DNA of 64,000 bases, from NCBI GenBank assembly GCA_964588305.1, contig CAZPOP010000004.1:26470-90469 (forward strand), written 5' to 3'. This stretch comes from an uncultured Ignavibacteria bacterium. Its GTDB lineage: Bacteria; Zixibacteria; MSB-5A5; SM1-73. Positions 2,813 to 35,384 of this stretch are shown here, in pieces (within the stretch, counting starts at the first letter, position 1; each line of letters begins with the position of its first letter). Below the pieces are notes generated by a model. That model was not told the DNA's origin and did not search any database. It saw only the letters and a program-made list of their open reading frames with translations. The position numbers and the translations under genes were made by a program.

Positions 2813-4900
2813 ATGGTTGAAAGAGTGGAAGTAGACTTAGGCGGAAGGAGTTTGATCGTAGAGACCGGCAAAGTTGCAAAACAGTCTCACGGAGCAACGA
2901 CTGTGCGCTCCGGAGATACCATCATCTTGGCCAGCGTGGTGGAGGCAAAAGATGTGGATCTGGAGCAGGATTTCCTCCCTCTGTTCGTAGACTACAGAGA
3001 AAAGGCCTATGCCGCCGGCAAGATTCCAGGCGGGTTTTTCAAAAGAGAAGGGAGACCCAGTGAAAAGGAGATCGTGAGTGCCAGATTGATTGACAGGTGT
3101 CTGCGCCCCTTGTTTCCGGAAGGGTACTTCAATGAGGTGCAGGTGATGGTGATGGTTCTCTCCTCTGATCAGGAGAATGATGCCGATGTTCTGGGATTGG
3201 TGGGGGCATCGGCAGCCTTAGGCATTTCGCCCATACCTTTCTATGAGCGAGTCGGAGCGGTTAGGGTGGGTCGGGTCAATGGTCGGTTTATCGCAAATCC
3301 CCTTTTCTCAGAGCTTGATGAGAGTGATATGAGTTTGGTGGTGGCGGGCACAAGGGATTCCATCAACATGGTGGAGGGAAGCTGCCAGGAAGTCTCCGAG
3401 GAGGATATCCTGGCCGCCCTGGAGTTTGGGCATGAAAAGGTAAAAATGATTGTCGAAATTCAGGAACAGCTCTTGAAAAGCTGCGGAAAGCCGAAACGAC
3501 AAGTAGAACCCCCTCCCAAGAATCCGGAATTGGTGGATGCGGTCACAAACCTAGCTTTCGAGAGAATAAAGGAGGCTGACCGTTCTCCAGACAAAACCGA
3601 AAGAGAAAACAAGCTGGACGAACTGTTGGATTCGGTGATGTTGGAGCTTCAAGAGAAATTCCCGGAAAGCGAGAGTCAAATCAAAGCGATTCTCCAGGAA
3701 CTGGAGAAACAGGATATGCGGGAGATGATTCTAACCGAAGGGAAAAGGGTGGACGGCAGGGACATTCATCAGATAAGGCCGATCTCCTGCGAGGTGGGGG
3801 TTTTGCCACGGACCCATGGCTCCGCGATTTTCACCCGAGGGCAGACCCAGTGTCTGGCCGTTGCCACTTTGGGTACCAAGATAGATGAACAGAGAGTTGA
3901 CGACTTGGAGGGCGAATCCTCCAAAAGCTACATGCTTCATTACAATTTTCCCCCTTTCAGCGTGGGGGAGATACGTCCCATTAGAGGGCCGGGAAGAAGG
4001 GAGATCGGCCATGGTGTATTAGCCGAAAGAGCCATCCAGCCGGTGGTTCCTAAAGAAGAGGTCTTCCCCTACACCATTCGACTCGTCTCCGATATCTTAG
4101 AGTCGAACGGCTCCTCCTCCATGGCCACGGTCTGTGGAGGGACCCTTTCTTTAATGGATGCGGGCGTCCCCATCAAAGCCCCGGTGGCTGGAGTGGCCTT
4201 AGGACTGATCAAGGACGGGGAAAAAGTTGCAATTCTCTCTGACATACTGGGGGTGGAGGATCACCTGGGAGATATGGATTTCAAGGTCACCGGCACCCGG
4301 GAGGGAATCACCGCCTTTCAGATGGACCTCAAGATGGCTGGGATAGATCTGAGCCTGTTGAGCCAAGCCCTGAAGCGAGCGAAAGAAGGCAGGCTTCACG
4401 TCCTGGATATAATGGAGCAGACCATTGCCAAGCCCAGACCGCAGCTCTCCGCCTACGCACCTCGGATAATCATCTTGAAGGTGAAACCGGACAAGATCGG
4501 TGAGATCATAGGTCCCGGGGGAAAGGTCATCAGAGGCATAATCGAGCAAAGCGGGGCGAAGATCGATATCGAGGACGATGGCTCCATCTTCATTGCCTCT
4601 GTCGATCAAAAAGCAGGCGAGCTGGCCCAGGAGCTCATATTGAAGCTGACCGAGGAACCAGAGATGGGCAAGGAGTATGTCGGCAAGGTGAAGAGGGTCA
4701 CCTCCTTTGGAGCATTTGTGGAGATCCTTCCCGGACAGGATGGTCTTGTGCACATATCGGAATTGGACACCCGAAGGGTGAATCGGGTGGAGGATATTCT
4801 GAATGTGGGGGATGAGGTGAAGGTTAAAATCATCGGCATTGATGTGGATGGAAAAATCAGGCTATCCAGAAAAGCTTGCTTTGCTGTCAGAAACAAATAG
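2813..4900 (+). CDS. pnp: Polynucleotide phosphorylase
   Basis: 695 aa with two RNase PH domains and C-terminal KH and S1 domains. Canonical rpsO-pnp synteny. Confidence 0.97.
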   Translation: MVERVEVDLGGRSLIVETGKVAKQSHGATTVRSGDTIILASVVEAKDVDLEQDFLPLFVDYREKAYAAGKIPGGFFKREGRPSEKEIVSARLIDRCLRPLFPEGYFNEVQVMVMVLSSDQENDADVLGLVGASAALGISPIPFYERVGAVRVGRVNGRFIANPLFSELDESDMSLVVAGTRDSINMVEGSCQEVSEEDILAALEFGHEKVKMIVEIQEQLLKSCGKPKRQVEPPPKNPELVDAVTNLAFERIKEADRSPDKTERENKLDELLDSVMLELQEKFPESESQIKAILQELEKQDMREMILTEGKRVDGRDIHQIRPISCEVGVLPRTHGSAIFTRGQTQCLAVATLGTKIDEQRVDDLEGESSKSYMLHYNFPPFSVGEIRPIRGPGRREIGHGVLAERAIQPVVPKEEVFPYTIRLVSDILESNGSSSMATVCGGTLSLMDAGVPIKAPVAGVALGLIKDGEKVAILSDILGVEDHLGDMDFKVTGTREGITAFQMDLKMAGIDLSLLSQALKRAKEGRLHVLDIMEQTIAKPRPQLSAYAPRIIILKVKPDKIGEIIGPGGKVIRGIIEQSGAKIDIEDDGSIFIASVDQKAGELAQELILKLTEEPEMGKEYVGKVKRVTSFGAFVEILPGQDGLVHISELDTRRVNRVEDILNVGDEVKVKIIGIDVDGKIRLSRKACFAVRNK

Positions 4901-5025
4901 ATCCCCCCGGTCCGAATTCTGGGTCCTTAAGAGAATCTTTGCTCTTTTTTGCCCAAACATGCGAGGAAGAGGGCAAAATACAGGTTGAGGTTTTTTGTTA
5001 CTTTGCTTCTAGAAAGGATACGGTT

Positions 5026-6297
5026 TTGAGAGGAATCCATAAGAAGACTGTTTTAAAAAACGGCATCCGTGTGTTGACGGAAAAGATCGGATATGTTCGG
5101 TCCGTGGCCATTGGGGTATGGATAGACGTTGGCTCCAGAGACGAAGCAAGCAACGAGACCGGAGTCTCTCACTTCATCGAGCATATGCTTTTCAAAGGAA
5201 CCAAGAAGAGGACCGCCAAGGAGATTGCCTCTTCTTTGGAATCGGTGGGAGGAGCCCTAAATGCTTTTACCGGGCGTGAACACACCTGCTACTTCGCGAG
5301 GATTTTGGATGAGCATTTGAGCATTGCCGTAGAAGTTTTGGCTGACATCCTAAAGAACTCTCTTCTGAATCCAACGGATGTGGAACGGGAAAAAACGGTG
5401 ATAGCCTCGGAGATCAGGGATTTGGAAGATTCGCCCGCGGATTTAGCTCACGATCGTCTGATGTCCGGCATGTGGCAGGATCATCCACTGGGAAGATCCA
5501 TCATGGGGGACGCGGAGAGCATTCTGAGGATGACCAGAGGTAAGCTTATCGATTTCACCAAGAGAAATTATGTCTCCCCCAAGGTGGTCATCGCCGCATC
5601 CGGCAATTTCAACCATAGGGATTTGGTTACGATGATCCAAGAGAAATTCCGGTTCAGTCAGACTGAGAGGACGCATCTGGCCGACCGATCCACTCCGGAG
5701 CCCAATCTAAACAGGATGGTGGTGAGCCGCCAAACGGCTCAGACTCACGTTAGTCTGGGAGTTCCTGCATTTCCCTATAAGGATAAGAGAAGATATGCCG
5801 CTATGCTCTTGAGCAATATCCTGGGTGGAGGAATGAGTTCTCGTCTTTTCCAGAGCATTAGGGAAGAACTGGGACTGGCCTATAATGTATATAGCTTCAT
5901 CGATTTTTTTGTAGATACCGGCGTTTTCGGCATCTATTTGGGAACTCACAAGAAAAACGCCGCCAGGGCGATTGATCTGGTCTTGAAAGAAATCAGAAAG
6001 ATAAAGAAGCATAGTGTATCCAGACAGGAACTCTCTAACTCCAAGTATCAGCTGAAGGGAAGTCTGATGTTGAGCCTGGAGAATACCTCTAACCGGATGA
6101 ATCGGCTGGCTCGACAGGAGCTCCTTTTGGGCAAATATGTGAACCTGGACGAGACTGCAAGCTCGATAAATAGGGTTAAGGCAAAAGAAGTGATCGACGT
6201 GGCGGTTGACCTTCTTGATTCCAACAAACTCTCCGCCCTGATCTTGGGACCAGTGGGAAAAAGAGTAGTCAATCAGATTGATTGGAGCCTCAGATAA
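5026..6297 (+). CDS. M16 (pitrilysin/insulinase) family zinc peptidase
   Basis: HFIEHMLFKGT inverted zinc-binding motif (HxxEH). The ORF opens at 4876 inside pnp; TTG 5026 with an upstream AAAGGA is a more plausible start (uncertain). Confidence 0.8.
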   Translation: MRGIHKKTVLKNGIRVLTEKIGYVRSVAIGVWIDVGSRDEASNETGVSHFIEHMLFKGTKKRTAKEIASSLESVGGALNAFTGREHTCYFARILDEHLSIAVEVLADILKNSLLNPTDVEREKTVIASEIRDLEDSPADLAHDRLMSGMWQDHPLGRSIMGDAESILRMTRGKLIDFTKRNYVSPKVVIAASGNFNHRDLVTMIQEKFRFSQTERTHLADRSTPEPNLNRMVVSRQTAQTHVSLGVPAFPYKDKRRYAAMLLSNILGGGMSSRLFQSIREELGLAYNVYSFIDFFVDTGVFGIYLGTHKKNAARAIDLVLKEIRKIKKHSVSRQELSNSKYQLKGSLMLSLENTSNRMNRLARQELLLGKYVNLDETASSINRVKAKEVIDVAVDLLDSNKLSALILGPVGKRVVNQIDWSLR

Positions 6298-7274: not shown

Positions 7275-7649
7275 ATGAAAGCTTTTTTGCTGAAATGGTT
7301 CGTCACCGCAGTTTCGATATTCATCGTGGCTAACGTATTTGGGGTGATTTACATTGAGAACTTGAAAGCACTGGTGCTGGCGGCTTTGATTCTGGGGGTT
7401 CTGAATGCCATCCTGAGACCAGTTCTGATAATCCTGACTTTGCCCATAACTCTCTTAACCCTGGGGCTTTCTACCCTGGCGATAAATGGCTTTCTTCTAT
7501 ATGTGGTATCGGGCCTGGTGTCGGGTTTTGAGATCGCCAGTTTTTGGAGAGCGTTCCTGGCGGCTCTTTTGATCAGTGCGGTTACTGCTTTGATAAATTT
7601 TCTGATACATAGGGAACCACAGGTGAGAATAACCTATACCAAGAGATGA
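7275..7649 (+). CDS. Small 4-TM membrane protein, phage-holin-4-like / DUF360 family
   Basis: About 124 aa and entirely hydrophobic, with a VLNAILRPVLIILTLPITLLTLGL segment typical of this family. Ends with TGA. Confidence 0.6.
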   Translation: MKAFLLKWFVTAVSIFIVANVFGVIYIENLKALVLAALILGVLNAILRPVLIILTLPITLLTLGLSTLAINGFLLYVVSGLVSGFEIASFWRAFLAALLISAVTALINFLIHREPQVRITYTKR

Positions 7650-7717
7650 AAAAGAGTGGTAGAGCCGAAGGTTGGAGAGTACTGTAGTCTTTTCGTCTTC
7701 CATTGAAGAGAGGTGAA

Positions 7718-9013
7718 ATGGATTTTTGTTACATTGAAGATATCGGGAAATTCGAAGGAAAAAAGGTGACCCTAAAAGGTTGGCTTTACAACAAAAGGTC
7801 CAAGGGCAAGATCCATTTTCTCTTGGTTCGAGACGGAACCGGCATCATTCAGTGTGTGATGACCAAAGGCGAGGTGGCAGATGAGGTTTTTGGGGCTTAT
7901 GACGCGCTTACTCAAGAATCATCCCTGGAAGTCACCGGAACGGTAAGGAAAGATAAAAGGGCTCCCGGTGGTTACGAATTGAACTTAGAAGATGTCAAAA
8001 TCGTCCAGATTGCTCAGGATTATCCCATTACTCCGAAGCCACACGGAGCGCCGTTCTTGTTTGAGCACCGGCATCTGCATTTGAGATCGACTCGTCCCCA
8101 TGCCATTCTGAGAGTCAGGAATGAACTTATCTGGGCGATAAGGAAGTTTTTTTACGATAACAAGTTTGTTCTCATCGATACTCCCATTTTGACCGGAGCC
8201 ATAGGGGAGACGGCAGCCACTTTGTTCGAGACAGAGTATTTCGATTTGGGAAAAGCCTATTTGGCTCAGACCGGGCAGTTGTACCTGGAAGCGGCTTGCG
8301 CCGCTTTCGGGAAGGTTTACTGCTTCGGGCCTACCTTCAGGGCGGAAAAATCCAAGACTCGAAGGCACCTGACTGAATTCTGGATGATGGAGGCAGAGGA
8401 GGCCTTCTACGATAATGAACAGAACATGGACTTGGAAGAGGATCTCTGCATCTATATTGTGGATTGGCTTTTGAATAATTGCAGGGAAGAATTCAAGATT
8501 TTAGAGAGAGATACCTCCCCTTTAGAGAATGTGAAAAAACCTTTTCCCAGAATCTCCTATGATGAAGCGGTGGAGAGGCTCAAAGGAGCCGGAAGCGAGA
8601 TTGAGTGGGGAATCGATTTCGGAGGCGAACATGAAACCATTTTGGCCAATATGTTCGACCGTCCAGTTTTCGTTTACAATTACCCAAAGAGAGCCCGGGC
8701 ATTTTACATGAAACCGCATCCCACCAGAGATGATTTAGTTCTGTGCGCTGATCTTTTGGCTCCTGAAGGATATGGGGAGATCATCGGTGGGTCGCAGAGG
8801 AATGACGATCATGACAGCTTGATTCAAAGAATAGAGGAGGAGAAACTGCCAAAAGATGCCTACAAGTGGTTCCTAGAGTTGAGAAAATACGGTTCGGTTC
8901 CGCATTCCGGTTTCGGCCTGGGGGTAGAAAGGGTCGTCACCTGGATTTGCGGCTTGCCTCACATAAGAGAGTCTGTCCCATTTCCCAGAACATTATATAG
9001 GTTGTATCCTTGA
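7718..9013 (+). CDS. asnS: Asparaginyl-tRNA synthetase (class IIb)
   Basis: FRAEKSKTRRHLTEFWMMEAE (motif 2 region) and GFGLGVERVV (motif 3). About 431 aa. ATG 7718 preceded by GAGGTG. Ends at TGA right after the conserved C-terminus. Confidence 0.88.
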   Translation: MDFCYIEDIGKFEGKKVTLKGWLYNKRSKGKIHFLLVRDGTGIIQCVMTKGEVADEVFGAYDALTQESSLEVTGTVRKDKRAPGGYELNLEDVKIVQIAQDYPITPKPHGAPFLFEHRHLHLRSTRPHAILRVRNELIWAIRKFFYDNKFVLIDTPILTGAIGETAATLFETEYFDLGKAYLAQTGQLYLEAACAAFGKVYCFGPTFRAEKSKTRRHLTEFWMMEAEEAFYDNEQNMDLEEDLCIYIVDWLLNNCREEFKILERDTSPLENVKKPFPRISYDEAVERLKGAGSEIEWGIDFGGEHETILANMFDRPVFVYNYPKRARAFYMKPHPTRDDLVLCADLLAPEGYGEIIGGSQRNDDHDSLIQRIEEEKLPKDAYKWFLELRKYGSVPHSGFGLGVERVVTWICGLPHIRESVPFPRTLYRLYP

Positions 9014-13230: not shown

Positions 13231-15510
13231 CTATACTCCCCAGAAGAGCGGCTTGCCTTCCTGAACGGGAAGATCGAATCTGATCACGTCGACTGCAGGC
13301 CATCTCTCCTGCTCTTTTTCTGCCTTCATTACTATCAAACGAAACCACACGCCTTTTTGTTCCTTAAACTCTAAAAGCTCGATCGGGACGGACAACTCCA
13401 TTGTTTTAACAAACGAAAAGTCCAAATCAGAGGAAATCACCTTCCAGTCCGATTCGTCCATTCTTCTAAGAAGAGCGGCCTTGTCATTCTTGATTGATAT
13501 TCTATGCCGAGGTGGTTCGATGAATTCTAAGATGAATTCGTAAGCCTCGCTTATGTATTTTTCATTCGGCACAGCGGCATCGATTCTAAAATACAGGTTT
13601 TTGTGGTCGAACCCAAAGAATATTCTTGACGTCTCACTGACAGCCCGATGCATGGCGCCGCCTGATTTGAGGCAGTCAAAGACGCCGGCCTGTTGCCATT
13701 CGTAATAGTGGGTGTTCTTGCCATCTATGACTGGTCTCACATATCCGGTGGGAGATAGAAAATAGGTTGAGACAAACTTGGATTTTATTGATTGGTAGAG
13801 CATCTCCGGGGGTTCCTCACCAATCAACTCGTAAACATATAGGAGGTGCGACCTGAAGATGCGGTCAAATTCATCGGTGCCGGCTCCCTGGTGTTCGTCT
13901 CCATACCACCAACACCAATCACTTCCTTCGGCGATGTAAATCTCATTCCAGGCTTTTTCCAAAATCTCCTTCGTCCGGGGTTTTCCCTTCACCTTGTGTT
14001 GATACGAAACCAGAGCGTCTCTGCTCATCTTTAAAAGATCCCACGCCAAATTATCCTCCGGATGCCCGATCCAAATTCTGAAGTTGTGGTTTATCCAGGA
14101 GCCGGCGAAAAGCCGAGGGAGCCTCTCGAATTTTTCCGTCCTTTCCAGGAAGGCACTTACCGTGGTGGTCCTCAGAAGCTTGTCCTCTGATAATCCGGCA
14201 TACAGCGCGGAGAGAAAATCATGCCCATCGTTTTGATAATATTCCCAGCAATTCTCGCCGTCCAGAATCACGCTGACCAAACATTGGGATAGATCTTCTT
14301 GCGGAAGGCTCTCCCTTGTCTTGTGCAGTCTTTCGATGAAGTCATCTGCTGCACGCTGTGGATCCCAGCTGGAATAAACAAAGCCGATAAGATCGGAAAG
14401 GGTATGATCCCTGAAGATGATGGAGAGTTCGCTCCCCTCTGTCGATATTCTGTATGGTCTATAGAGGAGACCTGCTCCACGTGAAACGGATTTAGTCGAC
14501 CGTGCTCTTGCCAACATGTTGCTGTAATATAAAATCTCCTCATCCGTGGCAATCCATCTCACGCCGAATTTGGCCACTCGGGGAAGAATGTCTTCGCTTA
14601 CGCTTCCCTCGGAAGGCCACATCCCCTTAGGTCTTTGGCCAAAAGTCTTTTCGTATAGTTTTACACCCAGATCTATCTGGGCTTCAAGATCTTCGGGGTG
14701 GGAGAATCTGTCCTTTGGCAGCTGGATATTGGGGAGGGCAAGTCTGGCCACATCGGTATCGCATATCAAGGGTGAGATGGGGTGGAAATAAGGGGAAAAG
14801 GTCACCTCGATTTGCCCTTTGTCTTGCAGTTCCCGGTACTTGGGCAGGATCAGACCCAGTATTTCTCTCTGTTTGGATATCAGACGATTCTTGTCCTCTT
14901 CGGTGAAGCCTGCTCCTTTTTTCAGCAGGTAGGAGATCAGCCGGTCCTTCTTGAAAATGGGGTCCACCCAGGCCAGGTTTGACCATACCTGCAAATCCAA
15001 AAAATCCTGAACTTCAAAATCCTGCACCGCCGATTTTGAGTCATACGAATCCTCTCCCCTCTTCTTCAGAAGTTGGTAGAATCTTGGGTGGGGATAGATC
15101 ATGGTCTTATGATTGCAGCTGAAGAAGGTGGAAAGCATCTTCTCTTTTTCTGCCCGGGTCAGATCTTTGGCTGGTTTTTCGGTCAGGAGAAGATGTTCGT
15201 CATAGGCCTGGTTGGAGGCGTAATCCTGAATTTGCTCGATTAAGGAGGGGACCAGGTTGAAGGTTTGGCGGATGGAAGGATAATCGTCCAGTTTGGCTGC
15301 CATGTCGAAATAGTCTTTGAGCGAGTGCAGCCTCACCCAAGGCAGCTGATACTCATTGCTCTTTGCATCCTTGTAATAGGGTTGATGCATGTGCCATAAG
15401 AAAGCTACCCGAAGCACCTGCGATTCACCCTTTCCCCTGCCCTGCAAGACCGGGGAGGGACCTTCTTGAGAGGAGATATCTGGATCATCTGCGAATGCAT
15501 GTTGAGGCAT
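13231..15510 (-). CDS. Glycoside hydrolase family 57 alpha-glucan enzyme (amylase / 4-alpha-glucanotransferase type)
   Basis: FLWHMHQPYYKD N-terminal GH57 signature. 759 aa with a long C-terminal extension. Confidence 0.85.
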   Translation of the reverse strand: MPQHAFADDPDISSQEGPSPVLQGRGKGESQVLRVAFLWHMHQPYYKDAKSNEYQLPWVRLHSLKDYFDMAAKLDDYPSIRQTFNLVPSLIEQIQDYASNQAYDEHLLLTEKPAKDLTRAEKEKMLSTFFSCNHKTMIYPHPRFYQLLKKRGEDSYDSKSAVQDFEVQDFLDLQVWSNLAWVDPIFKKDRLISYLLKKGAGFTEEDKNRLISKQREILGLILPKYRELQDKGQIEVTFSPYFHPISPLICDTDVARLALPNIQLPKDRFSHPEDLEAQIDLGVKLYEKTFGQRPKGMWPSEGSVSEDILPRVAKFGVRWIATDEEILYYSNMLARARSTKSVSRGAGLLYRPYRISTEGSELSIIFRDHTLSDLIGFVYSSWDPQRAADDFIERLHKTRESLPQEDLSQCLVSVILDGENCWEYYQNDGHDFLSALYAGLSEDKLLRTTTVSAFLERTEKFERLPRLFAGSWINHNFRIWIGHPEDNLAWDLLKMSRDALVSYQHKVKGKPRTKEILEKAWNEIYIAEGSDWCWWYGDEHQGAGTDEFDRIFRSHLLYVYELIGEEPPEMLYQSIKSKFVSTYFLSPTGYVRPVIDGKNTHYYEWQQAGVFDCLKSGGAMHRAVSETSRIFFGFDHKNLYFRIDAAVPNEKYISEAYEFILEFIEPPRHRISIKNDKAALLRRMDESDWKVISSDLDFSFVKTMELSVPIELLEFKEQKGVWFRLIVMKAEKEQERWPAVDVIRFDLPVQEGKPLFWGV

Positions 15511-15516
15511 GTTAAA

Positions 15517-16188
15517 TCACAAGAGTTGGCTTTCTGCCAACTGCTCTCTGGCTTTGTGGAATTCTTTGGAATCCGGATATTGGTCGAGCAGGCGCTCGAA
15601 AGCTTGTTTTGCTTTCTCCTTTTGGTTGGCTTTCAGGTAGGCTCGCCCTGCAGAAAGGAGATACTGCGGAGCGAGTAAACCATCAGGTTTGGCGGAGACC
15701 GCCTTGAGGAAATTATCTCCTGCCGCCTCGAATGTCCCGCTCTGCATATCACATTCTGCAATTCCAGCTTGAGCTGAGGCTAGGGAGAGCGGGTCCTCCG
15801 AATACTCTTCCACAAACCTTTGAAAGGTGGCTTTGGCGGTGGCGTAATCCTTGGCGTAGAAGTAGGCAGTAGCTAGGTAAAAGGTTGCCGGCCCGCCGCT
15901 TTTGGTCCCGCCGTATTTCTCCGTCACCGTATGCAAGTCGGTTATCGCTTGACTGGCATTACCTGCCTGGAATTCCATGGTAGCTTTCCCGAAAAGATCA
16001 GCTGCCTTTTGCTCTCTCCTCGTCCGTGAGGAGAAAACAAAGAAAACCACGACGGCCACCAGCACCACCGCGCCAGCGACCATCAGCACCTGATTCAGGT
16101 GCTTTTGGAGCCATTCTGATAATTTGAATGCTGTGGTAACCAGCTTGTCTTCCTTCATGTCTTTTTTGGTTATCCTTCTGGGACTCAT
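15517..16188 (-). CDS. Membrane-anchored tetratricopeptide-repeat protein (YfgM-like architecture)
   Basis: One N-terminal TM helix followed by TPR-like helical repeats. Confidence 0.65.
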   Translation of the reverse strand: MSPRRITKKDMKEDKLVTTAFKLSEWLQKHLNQVLMVAGAVVLVAVVVFFVFSSRTRREQKAADLFGKATMEFQAGNASQAITDLHTVTEKYGGTKSGGPATFYLATAYFYAKDYATAKATFQRFVEEYSEDPLSLASAQAGIAECDMQSGTFEAAGDNFLKAVSAKPDGLLAPQYLLSAGRAYLKANQKEKAKQAFERLLDQYPDSKEFHKAREQLAESQLL

Positions 16189-25207: not shown

Positions 25208-26368
25208 TTAAAAGGTGATCTGCACCTGAGCTTGCACGACATCGTTGTCGACCTCTCTTTCTTCTTTGACCCACTCGTAGGTCTCTTCGTCAAACACGTT
25301 CTTGTATCCCGGCTCCATTTTGTGGATAAAGTTCAAGTAGAACATGGCATTGATTCCCTCGAGGTAGTAATTCAGGCCTGCGGTTATCCAGGCTTCCTCG
25401 TCATCATCGCATACTTCGCAGATGTCATTTGAGAACGCAGCTGTCCCATAGCCCATGTCGAAGGTAGCCTCCTCATAACTTGCATCAGTGTCGGGATCGT
25501 GAAAATCGTACCGGGCCAAGAATTCCACCTTTGGGTGCGGTTGAACTCCGACGTGAGCGAAAAAGGCCTGACCATCGACGCTGCTGACGGTGTCGATGTG
25601 GCTGGGAGCATATTCGGTGGAAGCCATAAGGAATTCACCTCTAAACTTCAGGGTGAGGTCATCGGTAGCCTTATAATCTACCAGGGCAAACCCGCCGAAA
25701 CGTTTCATCTCCAGTGTCTCTTCGTCGGGGTTTGACACGCCAGTTGGAGGGGCAGCACTGCCGATCCAGGCGTAACCGCCGGCCCTTATTGTGGCCTGAT
25801 CCAGCGGAGGCTTGAACTCTGCGCGCGCCAGGAAGTCCTTAGCATCGTTGTTGTCCGCGAAGTTATTTGCCGGGTATCCGTTGAAGATTCCCAGGTTGAA
25901 ATCCAGATAGTCCGTTTTGGTCGTGCTCTGGATTCCCACCTGTCGCCACACGGCAAATCTCAGCGTGGTTAGAGGATAGTTTATCATCTCCAACTTCGCA
26001 GTTGAATATGGCATATAGATGGTGAAGTTGGGCAAGAACCTACCGAAGGCGATTTCGGTCTGGGGAATATAGAAAAACTGCGCCTTATAGTCCAATACGC
26101 TTATGCTTCCTCTATGATCAAGCTGGACGAAATACTTGACCTTGTCGGGGACAATGACTCCCCAGAAGAGGAAACGGGCCCGGTTCAGAGTGAAGGAGTC
26201 AAAGCCTGCCTCATCCTCCACATTGTAGATGAAGCCCGCCTGAAGTATGCCTCCCACCTTCAAGGTACCTTTACCGACCTTGATCTCAGCCATCTCTGAG
26301 ATGGCTGAGCTTGAGAGTAACAAAGAAAACAGGATACCCACGATGGCTAAAAAGGTGAGTTTTTTCAT
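25208..26368 (-). CDS. Outer-membrane beta-barrel porin (possibly OprO/P-like anion porin)
   Basis: Signal peptide, alternating beta-strand pattern, C-terminal ...QVQITF. Start lies 6 nt after the fdnH stop. Confidence 0.65.
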   Translation of the reverse strand: MKKLTFLAIVGILFSLLLSSSAISEMAEIKVGKGTLKVGGILQAGFIYNVEDEAGFDSFTLNRARFLFWGVIVPDKVKYFVQLDHRGSISVLDYKAQFFYIPQTEIAFGRFLPNFTIYMPYSTAKLEMINYPLTTLRFAVWRQVGIQSTTKTDYLDFNLGIFNGYPANNFADNNDAKDFLARAEFKPPLDQATIRAGGYAWIGSAAPPTGVSNPDEETLEMKRFGGFALVDYKATDDLTLKFRGEFLMASTEYAPSHIDTVSSVDGQAFFAHVGVQPHPKVEFLARYDFHDPDTDASYEEATFDMGYGTAAFSNDICEVCDDDEEAWITAGLNYYLEGINAMFYLNFIHKMEPGYKNVFDEETYEWVKEEREVDNDVVQAQVQITF

Positions 26369-26373
26369 TTAGT

Positions 26374-27192
26374 CTATCCCTCCTCCGTTTTTGTAACCAG
26401 ATCATCCTTTTTGTCTTTAACTTCTTTCACTTTCCCTAAAACGATTCCCACCAGAGCGGCAGTCAGGGTTAAAGTGCCGAAAGGCTTCAAAAGGTCGTGG
26501 AACAAGCCCAGATCCTCGGATACCTGGGGATCTTTGGGAAGGTCTGGATAGAGGTCCAGAGGTTCCGGAAGGACAAATATCTTCTTGGTTCCGGTTCCCA
26601 ATTCCTTCTCGCCGTAAATCACCGGCTGTCTTCCCTTTTTGGTCAGCCTTTCCACAGCCTTGTAGGCCATTTGTACAATCTTGTCCCGATCTCCAAAGAC
26701 CAGGCAATCGGTGGGACATGCCTTGGCACAGGCCGGCTCTAAGCCGTTTCCCGTTCGGTCGAAGCAGAAGGTACACTTGGTGGATTTTTCCGCTTGGGTG
26801 TCGATCACGGGAATGGTGAAAGGACAGTATTCCCGGCATGCTCCGCAGCCAATGCATAGCTCGCGGTTAACGTATACGGCTCCGGTCTTTTTGTCGTGGG
26901 TCATGGCCTTCACCGGAGTCACCGGGCAAGCCTTGACGCAAGCCGGATCGACGCACTGCATGCAGCGGTGCACCCGGAAGAGCCATTTTAGCTTATCCTT
27001 CTCCTCCTTCTCGTGAAACTTGACCAAGGTGTAGGTGGAGGGGGAGAGCCCAATGGGGTTCTGATATCCTCCGGCCGCCGCGAAAAAGGTGGTCTTCTCT
27101 GCGGGAAGTTCGTTCCACTGCTTGCAGGCCACCTGACAAGCCCGGCAGGCTATGCATTTTTCCATATCCAATAGCAATGCTTTTTCTGCCAT
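26374..27192 (-). CDS. fdnH: Formate dehydrogenase iron-sulfur subunit (FdnH/DmsB family) with a C-terminal TM anchor
   Basis: Four Cys clusters (CIACRACQVAC, CMQCVDPACVKACP, CIGCGACREYCP, CTFC...CAKACP) and the hydrophobic tail LTLTAALVGIVLG. ATG 27192 sits immediately after the fdnG stop. Confidence 0.85.
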   Translation of the reverse strand: MAEKALLLDMEKCIACRACQVACKQWNELPAEKTTFFAAAGGYQNPIGLSPSTYTLVKFHEKEEKDKLKWLFRVHRCMQCVDPACVKACPVTPVKAMTHDKKTGAVYVNRELCIGCGACREYCPFTIPVIDTQAEKSTKCTFCFDRTGNGLEPACAKACPTDCLVFGDRDKIVQMAYKAVERLTKKGRQPVIYGEKELGTGTKKIFVLPEPLDLYPDLPKDPQVSEDLGLFHDLLKPFGTLTLTAALVGIVLGKVKEVKDKKDDLVTKTEEG

Positions 27193-27193
27193 C

Positions 27194-30169
27194 TTATCCC
27201 ACCTCCTTTGCAACGTCGCAGAGGAACGCCTTATATTCAGGAATGTTGGTGTTGGCATCCCCCACGTGGGGAGTCAAACGGTTAGCACTATCTCCCTTTG
27301 CTAATCCCTTAAATCCGAAATGCCAGGGAAGACCGATCTGTTCATAGGCCTTTCCATTCAGCTTGAATGGCTTGAAACGCCTGGTCACCACCGCGTAAGC
27401 AACTATGTGTCCTCGCGCGGTCGATATCCGCACCTTATCCCCGTTCTTAACGCCCTTGGATTTGCCCAAAGATTCGCTCATCTCCACGAACATATCAGGC
27501 ATGAGCTCAACCAGCCAAGGATTGTTTCTGGTCATCTGGCCTGCCTGCCAGTGCTCGGTGACCCGATAAGTGGTAGCGATAATGGGGTATTTGTCAGGCG
27601 AGCCAACCGCGTCCATTTCCCCCGCCCAGATCTTAATGGTAGGATTGCTCTGCTGAGAGGACATGGCATTCTTCACCGGCGCTTCGAGGGGCTCGTAGTG
27701 CTCCGGGAAGGGACCATCTGCAAGACCGAAGCCAAAAAGGCGAGCGTGTCCCTCCGGCTTCATGATGAATGAGTATTTCTCTCCCGGAGGCCATCCTCCG
27801 TCTGGGACGTCTCCGGCCCATTTGGTCTCGGGACCGGTCCACTTAACCACCCACTTATTGGGAGCATAAGGATTGCCCTGAAGGTCGCAGGAAGCTCGAT
27901 TATAGATTATCCTGCGATTCACCGGCCAACACCAAGCCCATCCGGGATATAGCCCAATCTTGTTGGGAGCATCCTCCAGGCCCCGACGGGCTGCCATATT
28001 TCCATCTTCGGTGTAGCTAGCACAATAGAGCCAGTTGCCTGACGAGGTGGTGCCATCGTCCATGAGTTTGGCAAAGGAGGCAGCCAATTTGCCGGTTGTG
28101 AGATGATAACCATTGATATCTTTGGCTACCAGGTGTACGTCAGGCTCTTCTCCCTCACCATAATTCCAATTTAGATTCACGATAGGATCAGGGAACGCGC
28201 CACCCTCGCCTGCATACAGCTTTTTCAGTTCTTTGGCTATTCGATTCAGGATCCACAAGTCGGACTTGGCATTGCCCGGAGGATGGACCGCCGCGTATCT
28301 CCACTGCATCCAACGACCGCTGTTAGTAATGCTCCCCTCCTTCTCCATTGACGCGGCCGCCGGGAGCATAAAGACCTCTGTCTTTATGTTCTTGGGATCC
28401 ACTGCGGGATCAGCCCAGAAACCAGCAGTCTCAGTCTCCCAGAGGTCTGCTGCGATCAGCCAATCCAACCTTTCCAGCGCCTTTCTCTCCTTCAAGACGT
28501 TGGGTCCCGCCACCGCCGGATTCTGACCCATACAGATCAGCCCCTTGATCACTCCATCATACATGGCTTCGAACAAGGCTATGTGATCACAATTAGCACT
28601 CACCTTGGGAAGATACTGATAGCAGAATTCGTTATCCTTCTGAGCCTTGTCTCCCCAGAAAGCCTTCAACAGGCTAACCATGTACTTGGGAGTGTGCTGC
28701 CACCAATTAGCGCTCTTGGGATCATTCGACTTGGGCGTCCAGTGCTCCAAATACTGAGCCAAGGTTTGGTCCTTAACCCGAGGAGTCTTGAGATAGCCGG
28801 GAATGATGTGGAATAGGAGAGCGTAATCAGTGGAACCTTGCACGTTCGATTCGCCACGTAGGGCATTGATTCCTCCGCCAGCCACTCCCACGTTTCCCAA
28901 CAGCAGCTGAAGCATGGCGTAGGTGCGCACGTTCTGAGTACCCACAGTATGCTGAGTGGTCCCCATAGCGTACATGATAGTGCCTGATTTTTCCTTGGCA
29001 CCGGTCGCTCCGTAGGTCTTCGCCACCTCCACCATCAGCTCCGAAGGACATCCAGTAATGCTGGACACCTTCTCGGGGGTGTAACGGGAGAGGTGCTTCT
29101 TGAGAAGCTGAAACACGCACCGCGGGTCCTGCAGGGTCGGATCCTTTTTCGGATTTCCATCCGCATCCAGCTGGTAGATCCAGGTTTCTTTCCTATACAT
29201 TCTTTTGGCTTGATCGTAACCGGTGAAAAGCCCGTCATCGAATCCGAAACCCTCATCCACCATGAAGCTAGCGTTGGTGTGATCCACCAGGTAGTCCTTA
29301 TTGTAAAGATTGTTCTGGATGATGTAGTTCATCAGCCCATCGACGAATGCGATATCGGATCCCGATCTTATGGGTGCGTAGATGTCTGCTCTGGCCGAGG
29401 TGCGAGTGAAACGGGGATCGACGCTGATCAGCTTCGCCCCGTTATCCATAGCTTTGCTCACCCAACGGAAAGAAATGGGATGATTCTCTGCCGCATTGGA
29501 ACCGATGATCATGATGCAGTCAGCATTCTTGATGTCAATCCAGTGATTGGTCATGGCCCCTCTGCCGTAAGTCTCCGCCAAACTGGCGACTGTGGCAGAG
29601 TGTCATATGCGTGCCTGATGTTCCAAGTAAACGATGCCCAGGGCCCGAGCCAGCTTGGACCAGAGGTAGCACTCCTCATTGTCCAACGCGGCTCCGCCCA
29701 AACCTGCCAAGGCCTCGACCCGGTTCACCACGCGTCCCTGATCATCCGCTGCCGCCCAGCCTTCATCCCTGGTCTTCTTTATTCTCTTGGCCATCTCCGG
29801 TATGGCCCAATCCCAGCTTTTCTCCTCCCATTTGTCACTGTAGGGAGCTCTATAGAGAACCTTGGTCATCCGCCTTTCATTATTGGCTATCTGAATCAAG
29901 GCCTCTCCCTTACTGCAGAGCGATCCCTGATTTATGGGATGGTCCGGATCGCCTTCAATGTTTATCACTTTTCCATTGCTGACCGAAACGATCTGTGAGC
30001 ATCCCACTCCGCAATAAGGGCAAATGGTGGTGCTCTCCTTGGCATACTGGGTCTTAAGGTTCTGCGCATATGCTTCAGAAGTTCGCAAGTGAACCCCCAG
30101 ACCGCCTAAGATCGCCCCGCCCGTGACCCCTCCGGAGACTTTTAGAAAACCTCTTCTCGAGATTTTCAT
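27194..30169 (-). CDS. fdnG: Periplasmic formate dehydrogenase catalytic subunit (FdnG-type molybdopterin enzyme), selenocysteine at codon 189
   Basis: ORFs 29603..30169 and 27194..29581 are in one frame, joined by TGA 29603-29605. The junction ...LEHQARI-U-HSATVASLAETYGRGAMTNHW matches the FdnG Sec site (QARVUHGPTVA...FGRGAMTNHW). Twin-arginine signal SRRGFLK. N-terminal Cys cluster CPYCGVGC. Confidence 0.92.
29560..29600 (-). promoter_or_regulatory. SECIS-type hairpin following the fdnG UGA
   Basis: Lower stem CUCUGCC/GGCAGAG (nt 3-9 / 37-43 after UGA). Upper stem CGCC/GGCG (nt 15-18 / 24-27). Apical loop AGUUU. Confidence 0.6.
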
Positions 30170-30202: not shown

Positions 30203-30721
30203 TTATTTGTTCTCTTTCTTCTCTTCTTCTTTTTTCATCAATTCGACATCCGGTTCATATATCTCGTTAAGCATAAACATGGATCTGTTTATTTTTTCGA
30301 TTTCCTCCTCTGAAATTCCTGACTTCTCCTTTTTGGCCATCCTCTCTATGATTGCGTTCATCTCAGCTTGGTCTTTGGTCTGGTGAGCCTTGACCACTAC
30401 GGCCAGAGAATGGCATTTTCCGCACTTCTCCTGGAATAGGTTCTTGTGAGGTTCTTCCACGGGAAGCAAGGTAAAGGTTGCCTCTATCTCCTTTAGAGAT
30501 TGTTCGCTTATGTTTATCCCTGCCTTGTCGTGCATTTCCTTCATGATTTTCTCCATCCCCGTCCTCACGTCCTGCAGGGTATGGCAGATCGAGCATCTCT
30601 GCTCGAAGGCGGTCGGCTCTGACTTCTTGGGAGCCACCTGCTGTGTCGTCTGAGCAAACACCCAGACCAATGCAGCAGTCGACATCAGCAGAATACCACC
30701 ACAGATCCTGACTGCTTTCAT
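30203..30721 (-). CDS. Dihaem c-type cytochrome (172 aa, signal/anchor helix)
   Basis: Two CXXCH motifs (CSICH, CGKCH), each in a similar repeated module. N-terminal hydrophobic helix, Lys/Glu-rich tail. Confidence 0.72.
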   Translation of the reverse strand: MKAVRICGGILLMSTAALVWVFAQTTQQVAPKKSEPTAFEQRCSICHTLQDVRTGMEKIMKEMHDKAGINISEQSLKEIEATFTLLPVEEPHKNLFQEKCGKCHSLAVVVKAHQTKDQAEMNAIIERMAKKEKSGISEEEIEKINRSMFMLNEIYEPDVELMKKEEEKKENK

Positions 30722-30820: not shown

Positions 30821-31678
30821 CTATGAGACGATGATCGAGCCCGAAATCTGGGTCTTGAGATAGTTGGGGTTTTGGTATCCGTCCTTTTGGGCCAGGATGT
30901 CCAAATAAAGAGTGTTTATGTTCTCTTTGGAAAAATCTGGAGTCTCGTTTTCGGGCATCTTTCTTTCGTCGATCGTCTTAATGTACTTCTTGCATTTGTC
31001 GCATACATCTACCCTGAAGGGCCCCTTATCCGAGGATGAATCTCCCTCGGTGAAGAAGTATCTCAAAGTGTTGTGATCTTCATTGCCACAGAAGGGACAC
31101 ATTATTCTCTTGTAGTGCCACTGAGTGCCACAGAGACTGCACCACAGAATCCTTTTACCGTCCTCTCTTCTCAGTTTTTCCATCGCCGGCAAACTTCCAC
31201 AAAGAGGGCAATTCCCCTTAAGCCAACTTTCACGGTCGATTTTGTCCTGAAATTTCTCAGCGAAAACCTCAAAGAACGTCTGCACCAGATTCAGCCCCAA
31301 AAACAAAAGCAGATCCGGGTTCAAATTGAGCTGATTAGCAAGAGATTTAATCTCCTGTGGATCTCCGATCAGAACCGACCTGGTGAGCCTGGTGATATCC
31401 ATCTTTTCTCTCTTCTGCATTAGATCCTGGATTTCCGAAGGAGTGAAGGCCTGGTATTTTTCCAGAATGGGACACAGGATTCCGAGAAGCTCTTCTGAGA
31501 GTTTTCCATCAAGTTCTATCTTCTCTCTGGCGAGCAGGGGCCGCCCTTCTTTTGCTCGTTTTTGAATGCTTTCATGATCAACAACTATTGTCTCCCGGTG
31601 GACGCTTCTGAAATTATCTTTAGCGCCATTCAGCTCAGCAAGGAATTCGGAATGTTGTTTAGTACCTTCTTGTGTCAT
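30821..31678 (-). CDS. fdhE: Formate dehydrogenase accessory protein FdhE
   Basis: Four CXXC pairs (CPLCGS, CSLCGT, CPFCGN, CDKCKKY) in FdhE spacing. 285 aa. TAG stop. Confidence 0.85.
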   Translation of the reverse strand: MTQEGTKQHSEFLAELNGAKDNFRSVHRETIVVDHESIQKRAKEGRPLLAREKIELDGKLSEELLGILCPILEKYQAFTPSEIQDLMQKREKMDITRLTRSVLIGDPQEIKSLANQLNLNPDLLLFLGLNLVQTFFEVFAEKFQDKIDRESWLKGNCPLCGSLPAMEKLRREDGKRILWCSLCGTQWHYKRIMCPFCGNEDHNTLRYFFTEGDSSSDKGPFRVDVCDKCKKYIKTIDERKMPENETPDFSKENINTLYLDILAQKDGYQNPNYLKTQISGSIIVS

Positions 31679-32002: not shown

Positions 32003-32037
32003 AAAAACCGGACAGATTTTCGATCCGTCCGGTTTTT
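32003..32037 (-). terminator. Intrinsic terminator after the MtrB-like gene
   Basis: AAAAACCGGAC...GTCCGGTTTTT stem with flanking A/T runs, 29 nt past the TAA at 32066. Confidence 0.65.
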
Positions 32038-32065: not shown

Positions 32066-34246
32066 TTAGAAACCAATTCTCACGCCGCTTCGAATCACAA
32101 ACAAAAAGCCGGTCTCGATGCCGTAGACATATCCCTTGTCATCGGTCAAATCATAGTATGCTGCATCTGCGGTCAGCGAGATTCTTGGAGAAAGTGCATA
32201 CTCTGCTCCCGCGGAGATGTTGAACTGGGTATAGGCCAGATCAGAGTATTGGTTGATCGAGCTGAAATCGTAATCGGCTGCGGCAATATCGTCCGTCACC
32301 TCCTGTGGGACCTTGGTCATTCTACCCATGGTCAAAGTGCCTTTACTGTCGATGTAGTTTCCGTCCAGAGTGAGGCTTATCTTTTCGTTAGCCAGAAACA
32401 GAATGCCGGCGGAGAATGAAAGTGCTTCGTTTTGGTATTCGGTCTCAGCGAAAAAGGAACCATAATGCTTGGGATCGCCACTACCTGTGGCGGCAAGATG
32501 ACCCCCTCACCCATCCATCATGGCCACTGCGGCCAGCCCGTTTGATTTGTGATAAACATAGGCCACGCTGCCGAAGACATTCGACTTCAGAGTCGGGGCG
32601 AAACTGACCAAAACCTGAGGGTGCAACTGGGTGCGCTCGAAATCCAGACTGTCTGTGTCACCGTTTGTTCCCAAGCTGGCCTTTAAGGTCGCGGAGAGGG
32701 AGATCTTATGGTCGGGCTTGAAGTTCAGATCAAGCTCAACCCCATGCAAGTTCGTTGGCTGATTGGTTATGCTGCCATAGCGTAACGTATCTCGCTGGAA
32801 ATAATACCACCAATTGTTGTCAGGCAGCTTTTCCAAAACATCCTGGCCAGCTCTCTCAAATAGCTGCTCATATGGCGAAAAAGGGTCATCGGTGTTTTCG
32901 AAGAAATACTTGAGGCGTCCGGAATATCTCAGGTTGGGCCGGTATTTTCCCCCGGCTGAAAACCGAAGCTTGGTTGTTTTTCCTTCAGCCCCATAGTAAG
33001 GATAGTCATCCCTTTTCGTCCCTTCGTAACCAGCGGACAAAAAGACCCTGTATTTTCTGCTGGGCTGATAGATGAGCTCGGCAGAACCTTTTGCCACTGT
33101 CCGGGTGAGATTGGAATAACGGGTCCAATCAAAATCCTGACCGCCCCCGGTCAATCCGTCACGCCATAACGGTAGGTCTACGGGTACCTCATCACTCTCG
33201 ACCCGGGAGAGCGAAGCCAAAGCAATCATCTTGGTTTTCAGGTTCGGTCGGAATACATACTTGAAAATGCCACCATTGCTGTTTGCTTCGATTCCGGCAG
33301 AGACATTCTTGGCCTGAGAGTGAGTGAAACTTCCCGAAATCTCGCTTTTTTCCCCGAGATCAGCCTTCACCTTGGCGGTATGAGACATCTTCTGGGTTTC
33401 AGGAGTGGTGCCGAATTCGACCACCTCACCATTGAAGACGGTCCGGGTACCGAACTCATCCAGCAGAGTGCCATTCACGGGGTGCTGGGCGGTGTCGTAA
33501 AACGCCTCCGGGCCAGGCACCTCCGATTTGAAAGTGCGGAAGCTTCCCACATAGGAGAAAAACAGAGGCCCCGGGTCGATTTCAATCCCAGCAGATGCCG
33601 TGTGCGTGCGGCGATCAACCTTCACGGACTTGGAGATCATATGGCAGGAGGAACAGTGCATGGAGATCACCTTCTGCTCATCTCCCTTCTCCAAGATGGA
33701 ACGATGTGCGGCGATGATTTTCAGCATGACAGAGCCCGGGATTTTAACCTGGAAGTCCGATTTTATCTCGTACCGGGTATAGCCGAAATTGGCGTCCGGC
33801 ACCTCGTGCTCGTAGGTGAACATTTTTCCACCAGGTTTGTTCTGCTGATCCACTGCCTCACGAGCCATCAGATTCTCCAGAAGGTCCGTCGCGCGGTGTC
33901 GGTAAAAAGAGCGGTAGGAAACCAGACCAGAAAAACCGTCTTTTGATTTTCCCGCCAGGTCAAAAGAGATTCTCTTGGGATCATAATAATGGCCAAGGAA
34001 ATCCAGGCTTTGATCTTTTCGGTATCCGGAAAAGCTGAGAGATATCTCTGGAACCGCTTCCTCTTTTCCCCGGTCGAACTCTCCGACTTTTTTTGAGAAA
34101 TCCTGGTAGCCGGTATAGTGACTCCCCAGCCAGAGACTCCAAACAGAATGAGCGGCCTCCTCTTCAGAAAAAGCAAGTAAGGAAAAAATCGGCAAAACCA
34201 AACCTAGTGATAAAATGAAAAGGGATCTTAAGAACGATGTTTTCAT
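32066..34246 (-). CDS. MtrB/PioB-like giant outer-membrane beta-barrel, 726 codons with one in-frame TGA (32507-32509)
   Basis: Signal peptide and AAGGAG RBS. ORFs 32507..34246 and 32066..32335 plus the stretch between them form a single frame. Ends ...SGVRIGF. Lies 10 nt downstream of the decahaem cytochrome gene. Contains CSSCH. Confidence 0.7.
32468..32497 (-). promoter_or_regulatory. SECIS-like hairpin downstream of the in-frame UGA of the barrel gene (hypothetical function)
   Basis: CUUG-C-CGCCAC-[AGGUA]-GUGGCG-AUCC-CAAG. The upper stem begins at nt 15 after UGA, as in fdnG. Confidence 0.35.
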
Positions 34247-34256
34247 ATTTCTCTCC

Positions 34257-35216
34257 TTATCTTGTTAATGCTCTTCCTCCACCCGAAATGGACTGGGACG
34301 GCAGATCACTTCCGTGAATCTCCGAGTGACACTGAGTGCATTTGGTCAACATCGCCCTCTTCATGCCGTCGCGAGTGGAGATGCCCTCTCGCTCGGGATG
34401 CATTGGAGCATTGAACTCTCCCTCATACCCCACCAGAGTAACATGGAAGTGCATGGGATGACAGGATAAGCAGAGAAAAGGCTCATTCTGCAAAAGCATC
34501 TTGTCGGCGACGGTTCCGTGTGGATCATGACAGATTCCGCAGTCCTCGTTAACCGGTTGGTGCTCGAAGATGAATGGGCCCTGCAGCGAGGCATGACAGG
34601 ACAAGCAGAGTTCACGACCGTCGTCCCCTACCGCATACTTGACCTCTCCCGAATGAATGGGGTGACAGTCCGAACAGCTCACTAAGCCTTCCATAACCGG
34701 ATGATGGGAGGGCATTCGGGCCTGGGCACGTTTGTCTGCGTGACAGTCAAAACAGAGTGAGGGCTCCTGCTTTGTTAAAAGATGTTTACCCTCGGAATGA
34801 ATCCTGTGACAATCGCCACAGCCTTCTGCTGTCTCGAAATGAGTCGATCCGTGCCAGGAGGCGAAAGCCGGGCCCTTGTGGCAATTGGTGCACAGATTGG
34901 TTCCCGTGGCGGTATAATCTTTAGGCGGATTATAAATCAGCGTGGGATCTCCTTCTTCGGCATGCGCCGAGCCCGGCCCATGACAAGCCTCACAGGTGTT
35001 TTCATCCCCCACCGATAATCTGGCATGAATGTTTTTTTCAAATTTCTCAGAGACTTCCTCATGGCATGCTGAACAGAGCTCATCACCCACTTCCACCGCA
35101 TCAGGAGGCAAACCACCCGTTACGTATGCCGCTGGAAGAAGAAGCAGGCAGAAAACAAAAACCAACAGTGGGCCGGTTGAGTTCTTGGCTGTAAGGTATT
35201 TGAGAGACCTAAACAT
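34257..35216 (-). CDS. Periplasmic decahaem c-type cytochrome, MtrA/DmsE/PioA/MtoA family
   Basis: 319 aa with a signal peptide and ten CXXCH motifs: CSACH, CEACH, CTNCH, CGDCH, CFDCH, CSDCH, CLSCH, CGICH, CLSCH, CTQCH. Confidence 0.88.
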   Translation of the reverse strand: MFRSLKYLTAKNSTGPLLVFVFCLLLLPAAYVTGGLPPDAVEVGDELCSACHEEVSEKFEKNIHARLSVGDENTCEACHGPGSAHAEEGDPTLIYNPPKDYTATGTNLCTNCHKGPAFASWHGSTHFETAEGCGDCHRIHSEGKHLLTKQEPSLCFDCHADKRAQARMPSHHPVMEGLVSCSDCHPIHSGEVKYAVGDDGRELCLSCHASLQGPFIFEHQPVNEDCGICHDPHGTVADKMLLQNEPFLCLSCHPMHFHVTLVGYEGEFNAPMHPEREGISTRDGMKRAMLTKCTQCHSEIHGSDLPSQSISGGGRALTR

Positions 35217-35355: not shown

Positions 35356-35384
35356 AATTTAAGGAACCTCATAATCGGTGTCAA
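35356..35384 (-). promoter_or_regulatory. Sigma70-like promoter candidate for the cytochrome-barrel operon (TTGACA-N17-TAAATT)
   Basis: Reverse complement reads TTGACAccgattatgaggttcctTAAATT, about 140 nt upstream of the ATG at 35216. Confidence 0.35.

Follow-up and report, generated by a model that had tools for sequence, protein, structure and literature searches.

A UGA codon, very likely read as selenocysteine with the help of its own hairpin, in a predicted outer-membrane barrel gene of the GSU2204 family

The MtrA-MtrB module of Shewanella (PDB ID 6R2Q) and the OmcK/OmcL pair (GSU2203/GSU2204) of Geobacter sulfurreducens and HotSeep-1 are the described systems that most resemble a gene pair encoded by an uncultured bacterium (assembly GCA_964588305.1, contig CAZPOP010000004.1, positions 26,470 to 90,469). 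This stretch of 64,000 nucleotides (nt) is named the window below, and positions are those of the window. Like MtrA-MtrB, the window pair is a two-gene module that associates a decahaem cytochrome of ~320 residues with an outer-membrane barrel of ~700 residues. The barrel gene, of the GSU2204/OmcL family and MtrB/PioB-like, contains an in-frame UGA at codon 580, which is very likely a genuine and deeply conserved selenocysteine (Sec) codon with its own insertion hairpin. To our knowledge, the solved MtrB is devoid of Sec and of any CXXCH haem motif, whereas the window family has both.

The OmcK/OmcL pair shares with the window a decahaem gene located directly upstream of a barrel gene with a single CXXCH. 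Growth on hematite and magnetite is accompanied by up-regulation of GSU2203 (OmcK) and GSU2204 (PMC4070692), and OmcK/OmcL of Geobacter/HotSeep-1 are treated as a putative porin:cytochrome conduit, "OmcKL", highly expressed in HotSeep-1 (PMC10553843). The latter study names OmcK an extracellular cytochrome and never mentions selenocysteine; conversely, family models group the window cytochrome with the periplasmic decahaems of the MtrA/DmsE type. The window also differs from OmcKL by its lineage, labelled Zixibacteria/Ignavibacteria and not Desulfuromonadia, and by the location of the pair beside fdhE, a cytochrome c gene and fdnGH. Two selenoproteome reviews include the GSU2204 family among the predicted selenoproteins, with a single Sec and without a recognised motif (PMC9312934, PMC13188914); the main text of the article that they cite for it, Zhang and Gladyshev 2008 (PMC2398784), does not mention the family. 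The first-pass annotation of the window knew of no precedent for Sec in such a protein: these two reviews provide one, as does a dedicated family model, NF041027. The family is already catalogued, and the present finding is a confirmation in a routine member, not a discovery. What is added here is covariation support for a family-specific selenocysteine insertion sequence (SECIS), the apparent absence of a Cys form, and a small sister clade that lacks the hairpin and has Ser or Lys in the Sec column. Another predicted selenoprotein with no recognised Sec motif, the ExtKL multihaem cytochrome (NF040886), is likewise a component of an extracellular-electron-transfer cluster. Compared by description, ExtKL is a soluble or lipoprotein multihaem cytochrome of an unrelated family, whereas the window protein is a barrel.

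The barrel gene (32066..34246, minus strand) runs from the ATG at 34246 to the TAA at 32068-32066 as 726 sense-or-TGA codons. Translation confirms the earlier description of this frame as open save for one internal stop, the TGA at 32507..32509 (minus strand): 579 codons are followed by UGA (Sec580), 146 codons, and TAA. The peptide context of codon 580 is AVAMMDG-*-GGHLAATGSGDPKHY. The 146 codons 3' of the UGA (32069..32506, minus strand) code for the final strands of the barrel and its C-terminal beta-signal (...FVIRSGVRIGF), while the CSSCH codons (33641..33655, minus strand; residues 198-202) specify the sole c-type haem attachment motif of the protein. With NF041027, described as "GSU2204 family CXXCH-containing (seleno)protein" (model GSU2204_Se_pt_1), the barrel protein scores 523.6 bits (cutoff 350, E = 7.6e-157), residues 16-579 matching profile positions 3-580 of 580. 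The final position of this profile is the residue preceding the UGA, and the profile was therefore built for a selenoprotein. The window protein exhibits four traits of the GSU2204 family: the family score, the single CXXCH, the UGA with a C-terminal extension, and the adjacent decahaem of the GSU2203 type.

A homologue search with the joined 726-residue sequence as query returned 100 homologues (28-84% identity), all of which end at the UGA column. Their lengths are comprised between 415 and 610 amino acids, most about 570-590; nearly all have 560-610 residues and span ~80% of the query. In an alignment of 34 homologues, the last residue, G579, is invariant at the end of the consensus ...KSNGLAxVAMMDG, as are C198, C201 and H202 of the haem motif. 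Scanning genome contigs with a 13-sequence alignment identified 19 loci in one-per-species genomes; together with three loci of the most distant members (28-30% identity), they form a set of 22 related loci. These come from metagenome-assembled genomes (MAGs) labelled Zixibacteria, Ignavibacteria, Calditrichaeota/Calditrichia, KSB1, Cytophagia and others, and also from metagenome contigs; the best matches of the window (71-72% identity) belong to MAGs labelled Zixibacteria or Ignavibacteria. The TGA occurs at the identical column in 22/22 loci and, in the 19 genome loci, directly after ...MMDG or ...LFDG. The first-pass annotation had considered a base-call error or a very recent nonsense mutation. 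The latter would turn the gene into a pseudogene, and errors of sequencing or assembly in the window belong to the same explanation. Nothing speaks for it beyond the presence of the stop codon itself. The same TGA is found in 22 independent loci from different assemblies, down to 28-30% identity, all 100 protein clusters end there, and the sequence downstream is under purifying selection. Mutation and error are both excluded on these grounds, with a residual probability that is close to nil.

Past the TGA, the frame remains open for 130-156 codons in every locus, the value of 130 being that of locus L014, whose record is N-masked in that stretch. In-frame conservation starts at the first codon past the UGA ([GA][GA]H[LVIM]...) and continues with the blocks KHYGS, YSDL.Y and GYVYG.E.GS. 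The C-terminus is a beta-signal with an aromatic residue in the window (...RIGF) and in most relatives. Between the window and locus L001, protein identity is 74% downstream and 71% upstream of the UGA, the downstream part being conserved as much as the upstream part. In the downstream part, nucleotide differences at the first, second and third codon positions amount to 24/17/59 (L001) and 15/21/67 (L003), a third-position excess. As judged from these comparisons, the downstream frame is under purifying selection and its 146 codons are translated in frame. Upstream-level conservation and third-position differences bear out the earlier proposal that these codons (146 sense codons as counted here) are the C-terminus of the barrel and not a separate gene.

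The relatives of this C-terminal part were collected with a full HMMER scan in which the 146 downstream residues were compared with 1.84 billion representatives. Nearly all of the 86 matches (about 80) are orphan fragments of 55-157 amino acids, i.e., downstream pieces called as separate genes. Genuine full-length relatives are two, P0135 and P0165 (21-23% identity), which belong to a sister clade of eight proteins with S, S, S, S, S, K, K and K at the Sec column. This sister clade retains the CXXCH and the upstream decahaem gene.

The RNA past the UGA reads GGGGGUCAU-CUUG-C-CGCCAC-AGGUA-GUGGCG-AUCC-CAAG, as previously described; if only the upper hairpin is considered, the same RNA is written GGGGGUCAUCUUGC-CGCCAC-AGGUA-GUGGCG-AUCCCAAG. 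The upper stem-loop, CGCCAC-AGGUA-GUGGCG (32476..32492, minus strand), spans nt +15 to +31 past the UGA. The bacterial SECIS (bSECIS) consensus comprises a loop of 3-9 nt, a stem of 4-16 bp, a UGA-to-loop distance of 16-37 nt, a minimum free energy of -7.5 kcal/mol or below, and a G at loop position 1 or 2, in most cases with G or U next to it on the 3' side (PMC13188914). The window hairpin agrees with each of these features: its loop is 5 nt long with a G at position 2, its stem has 6 bp, the spacing is 20 nt, and these 17 nt fold with -9.2 kcal/mol (z = -3.9; 0/200 shuffles equally stable). In the relatives, the loop starts 20 or 23 nt past the UGA, and its opening is N-G-[G/U] in all members; where loop position 1 pairs with the last loop base, the loop opens as G-G-[U/A]. 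A possible extended SECIS with the lower stem CUUG...CAAG (32468..32497, minus strand) can be drawn on the sequence, GGGGUC/GAUCCC being an alternative lower pairing. Minimum-energy folds use lower pairings other than CUUG...CAAG, and L001 has CUUA at the place of the window's CUUG.

The hairpin covaries among the relatives. Pairing is kept among stems as different as CGCCAC/GUGGCG, CACCAC/GUGGUG, AGCCAC/GUGGCU, GGUGC/GCACC, CGACGC/GCGUCG, UGAUGC/GCAUCA, GGCGCC/GGCGCC and UCCUGUC/GACGGGA, and it is retained where the hairpin specifies different peptides (AATGSG, FGAGST, DAVSVD, PVGDGT). When 14 sites are aligned without gaps over 40 nt, 96.4% of the cells are paired and 5/6 pairs exhibit two-sided changes; the covariation score is 0.678, as compared to 0.272 in shuffled alignments (0/500 reach the observed value) and at most 0.30 in slid registers. 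An alignment of 21 sequences gives 96.7% of paired cells, 6/6 compensatory pairs, and a score of 0.740 against 0.250 shuffled (0/500 reach it) and at most 0.15 in slid registers. The latter alignment was fitted to a covariance model, with L018 misplaced in it, and the ungapped 14-site result is therefore the cleaner one. A MAFFT alignment of the 55 nt past the UGA was discarded in favour of the ungapped subset, as codon insertions put five hairpins out of register. The covariance model built from the 14 sites recovers the five left-out genome-locus sites in 271 kb with 16.5-28.2 bits; the two most distant sites are weaker (15.3 and 13.1 bits, E 0.1 and 0.37), and no other site in 271-278 kb scores below E ~1. 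In two genes of the sister clade, with TCC (Ser) and AAG (Lys) at the column, neither a match of the model, even with filters off, nor a comparable fold was found. Conserved, covarying and linked to the UGA, the hairpin would act as a bacterial SECIS.

The conservation of the UGA might alternatively reflect a true conserved stop, the 579-residue piece and a separately initiated piece of ~100-146 residues forming a split barrel. This is how gene callers treat the locus, and databases hold the orphan downstream fragments mentioned above together with 100 N-terminal pieces. However, conservation from the first codon past the UGA is not accompanied by a conserved start codon or Shine-Dalgarno sequence, the called downstream fragments start at scattered internal Met codons, and the insertions between UGA and hairpin are always multiples of 3 nt. 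Furthermore, the N-terminal piece alone would be devoid of the C-terminal beta-signal, and a split barrel leaves unexplained a covarying SECIS-type hairpin that is absent where the column is a sense codon. Such an arrangement is thus highly improbable.

The ability of the host to decode UGA as Sec is documented within the window itself. The fdnG gene (27194-30169, minus strand) is split by a TGA (29605-29603) that aligns with the HQARI-U-HS site of solved Sec-containing formate dehydrogenases; TIGR01553 matches with profile positions 1-194 before this TGA and 203-1009 after it. The UGA of fdnG occupies the canonical position for Sec, which shows that this codon can be read as Sec in the host. 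Conversely, TGA is the commonest true stop of the window (19/41 long open reading frames, ORFs). The genes recN, folD, der, the farnesyl pyrophosphate synthase gene and gpsA end at TGA, each at full profile length, and the genetic code is therefore standard; TGA is an ordinary stop elsewhere in the window, as the first-pass annotation had it, and an alternative code was rejected. Among the TGA-ended ORFs of the window followed by long open frames, no other selenoprotein candidate was found, all being ordinary full-length housekeeping genes.

The Sec codon and SECIS of fdnG (29550..29608, minus strand) are given here as context only. The earlier comparison of this element with the barrel hairpin holds in part. 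Past the fdnG TGA the sequence is CACUCUGCCACAGUCGCCAGUUUGGCGGAGACUUACGGCAGAG, in which CGCC occupies nt 15-18 after the UGA, as stated. As in the fdhF/fdnG SECIS (Rfam SECIS_3), the barrel element is a coding-region stem-loop just 3' of the UGA, at a comparable spacing, and its small apical loop contains G-U; it differs by being shorter, with a 6-bp conserved stem. A specific resemblance did not hold: SECIS_3 matches the fdnG element below threshold (30.9 bits, E = 1.4e-5, against a gathering score of 63) and the barrel hairpin not at all, the barrel-family covariance model finds no match on it, and a specific common origin was rejected because the two models do not cross-match. The likeness is one of generic bacterial SECIS features, with no detectable common descent.

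The identity of the inserted residue is not readable from the sequence alone, and no Cys homologue marks the column as a Sec/Cys position. Hence, the hairpin might be thought to stimulate read-through by a near-cognate or suppressor transfer RNA (tRNA) inserting Trp, Cys, Arg or Gly. In every member, the hairpin nevertheless agrees with SelB-binding elements in its spacing, its size and its loop G-[G/U], and the host has at least one canonical selenoprotein (fdnG). A sense codon is fixed in 0 of more than 120 members, though it would be expected if an ordinary residue were adequate, and TGA terminates normally elsewhere in the window. Read-through of this kind has accordingly very little probability. 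The selenocysteine option put forward in the first-pass annotation is strongly supported by the conservation of the UGA, the covarying hairpin, and fdnG.

With codon 580 read as Sec, the hairpin would recruit SelB with Sec-tRNA(Sec) to the ribosome, following the standard bacterial mechanism, and translation would pass the UGA to yield a single 726-residue protein. By analogy with MtrAB and according to the model of a relative, this product is predicted to be a large MtrB-like outer-membrane barrel of ~26 strands, carrying one covalent c-type haem at CSSCH and one selenocysteine. The barrel and the probably co-transcribed decahaem cytochrome may form a porin-cytochrome conduit across the outer membrane. 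Its topology can be approached from the structure model of P0135, a relative lacking Sec that has 23% identity to the window protein. The model (pLDDT 78.4, pTM 0.73; predicted local distance difference test and predicted template-modelling scores) is a large barrel of ~26 strands, whose best PDB match by a wide margin is the MtrB chain 6R2Q_B (E = 2.2e-22, template-modelling score 0.60/0.69, the next match being below 0.4). The CXXCH is located at the tip of a very long hairpin formed by strands 189-214 and 216-241, and the Sec-equivalent residue in loop 623-637 (pLDDT <50), between the long strands 603-622 and 638-659. Strand counts started at either end, the C-terminal beta-signal strand or the N-terminus, place both sites on the same, nominally extracellular, face when residues 511-543 are taken as part of a loop; they give topology by parity on a distant relative, not measured geometry. 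According to this model, the haem motif and Sec580 would each be located at the tip of an unusually long hairpin, both on one face of the barrel, probably the outer one.

Several observations weigh against a selenocysteine in an MtrB-like barrel. In the literature searched, no experimental demonstration of Sec incorporation was found, here or in any family member; no function is reported there for the Sec either. The genes for tRNA-Sec and selA/B/D are absent from the 64-kb window, the rest of the genome lying outside that search. Searching the hairpin with SECIS models, as the first-pass annotation had suggested, gave a divided answer: the published bSECIS features and the family covariance model are in favour, but none of the Rfam SECIS families (SECIS_2 to SECIS_5) matches 32400-32540 at E <=10. 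At gathering thresholds, Rfam yields three tRNAs only in the window. The Rfam mismatch weighs little because these SECIS families are gene-specific and the genuine fdnG element is also below threshold. The proposal to examine whether the aligned position holds Cys or Sec also had a mixed outcome: the UGA is at the Sec column in 22/22 loci, but no Cys-form homologue was found in the C-terminal scan of 1.84 billion representatives, in a protein search with the sister clade, or in the homologue search. The Sec/Cys pair behind most computational selenoprotein calls is consequently missing, and the nearest relatives without Sec, full-length proteins, have Ser or Lys at this column. Distant and hairpin-less, this sister clade is no argument against Sec in the present clade. 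As for the fold, the barrel differs from MtrA-MtrB in that Pfam MtrB_PioB (PF11854) scores 19.4 bits (residues 381-702, spanning the UGA), below the gathering score of 23, and a PDB sequence-profile search with the family alignment gave no match, MtrB included; precomputed PF11854 matches are present on several homologues and on the sister clade. Finally, the placement of Sec580 is drawn from a 23%-identical relative with a low-confidence loop.

A bolder proposal is that the Sec is obligatory in the family and that the barrel, rather than being a passive sheath, is itself a redox or catalytic site that depends on selenium at the cell surface. Its selenolate might, for instance, ligate or tune the haem, or bind metal(loid)/chalcogen substrates. 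The points cited for it are the lack of a Cys form in more than 120 members from several phylum-level groups, a Sec with no conserved partner cysteine, and the predicted location of this Sec at a long-hairpin tip that shares a barrel face with the covalent haem. If true, this would be new chemistry for an outer-membrane electron conduit; it is considered rather unlikely. The invariant cysteines of the family are the two haem-binding ones only, which leaves no CxxU-type redox motif. Moreover, the sister clade keeps the haem motif with neither Sec nor Cys, which argues against Sec as an indispensable haem ligand.

The partner of the barrel gene (34257..35216, minus strand; 319 codons, 10 CXXCH counted in the translation) encodes an MtrA/DmsE-like decahaem c-type cytochrome that belongs to the GSU2203/OmcK family, and its stop is located 10 nt 5' of the barrel ATG. 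Its product scores 348.4 bits with NF041028 (GSU2203 family, cutoff 325) and 210.6 bits with TIGR03508 (DmsE-family decahaem, cutoff 192.2). A gene of the decahaem type is found directly upstream of the barrel gene in 18/18 related loci with upstream DNA. About 35 nt past the barrel TAA, a terminator-like hairpin, CCGGAC...GUCCGG followed by UUUUU (32003..32032, minus strand), was read directly on the sequence; it was not listed by the pattern scanner, as its drawn loop is 13 nt long against a scanner limit of 8 nt. It suggests the end of a two-gene unit. Upstream of the decahaem gene, there is a promoter-like site, TTGACA-17-TAAATT (35356-35384, minus strand). This site and the terminator-like hairpin, both of them consensus matches only, would bound a two-gene transcription unit.

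Downstream of the barrel gene lies the formate dehydrogenase cluster: fdhE (30821-31678), a small cytochrome c gene (30203-30721) whose relatives carry two CXXCH, fdnG, fdnH (26374-27258), and an ORF of 386 amino acids (25208-26368) with no family match. The presence of fdhE, cytochrome c and fdnGH at this place is common only to the closest relatives. An MtrC-like gene adjoining the cytochrome-barrel pair was not found in the window. To note, more distant Sec-containing members have large multihaem cytochrome genes 3' of the barrel instead of the formate dehydrogenase cluster (L016, 8428-11088; L018, 8307-13096; L013, 10585-12659), with 8, 11, 19, 13 and 4 CXXCH motifs. They are possible extracellular partners of the conduit.

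In practical terms, the pieces 32507-34246 and 32066-32506 are to be joined as one selenoprotein gene, and the same split by gene callers affects the GSU2204 family almost everywhere. The family links selenium to extracellular electron transfer, its Sec being known only from selenoprotein catalogues. Knock-outs, heterologous expression and structural work on conduits of the OmcKL type would fail or mislead if the Sec and the hairpin are ignored, and selenium supply could limit this electron-transfer route.

A few members of the family, and one other TGA of the window, deserve mention. In L019, from a KSB1 MAG, the N-terminal part of the barrel is encoded by two ORFs (4521-5881), with five stops when 4557-5878 is translated in one frame; the defect affects neither the Sec UGA nor the hairpin nor the frame downstream. 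The N-terminal part was broken either by an assembly frameshift or by decay of the copy. The most distant Sec members (L020, ~5690-5716; L021, ~5804-5830; proteins P0096, P0098 and P0100) exhibit a Cys seven residues before the Sec, e.g., ALFCIPVMDG-U. Absent in the rest of the family, this Cys could be a lineage-specific partner thiol. Elsewhere in the window (13231-16188, minus strand), an ORF of 223 amino acids, similar to tetratricopeptide repeat/YbgF proteins, ends at a TGA followed two codons on, in frame, by an ATG-started ORF of 759 amino acids with a weak glucan-branching-enzyme-like match. This arrangement is probably due to chance, with two complete separate genes and no recoding.

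Two loci of the sister clade have remarkable neighbours. In L023 (1-8328, GCA_964509835.1), the non-Sec barrel and decahaem genes are found among an ArsP_1 permease, a thioredoxin, DsbD_TM, an HTH_5 (ArsR-type) regulator, and an LMWPc phosphatase or arsenate reductase. These genes look like arsenic or thiol handling, which hints at a metalloid-related role for this branch. In L024, a selB gene (7493-8334; EF-Tu GTPase domain, SelB barrel, and winged-helix domains) is located ~2 kb downstream of the sister-clade barrel gene, whose Sec column is occupied by a Lys codon in place of UGA.

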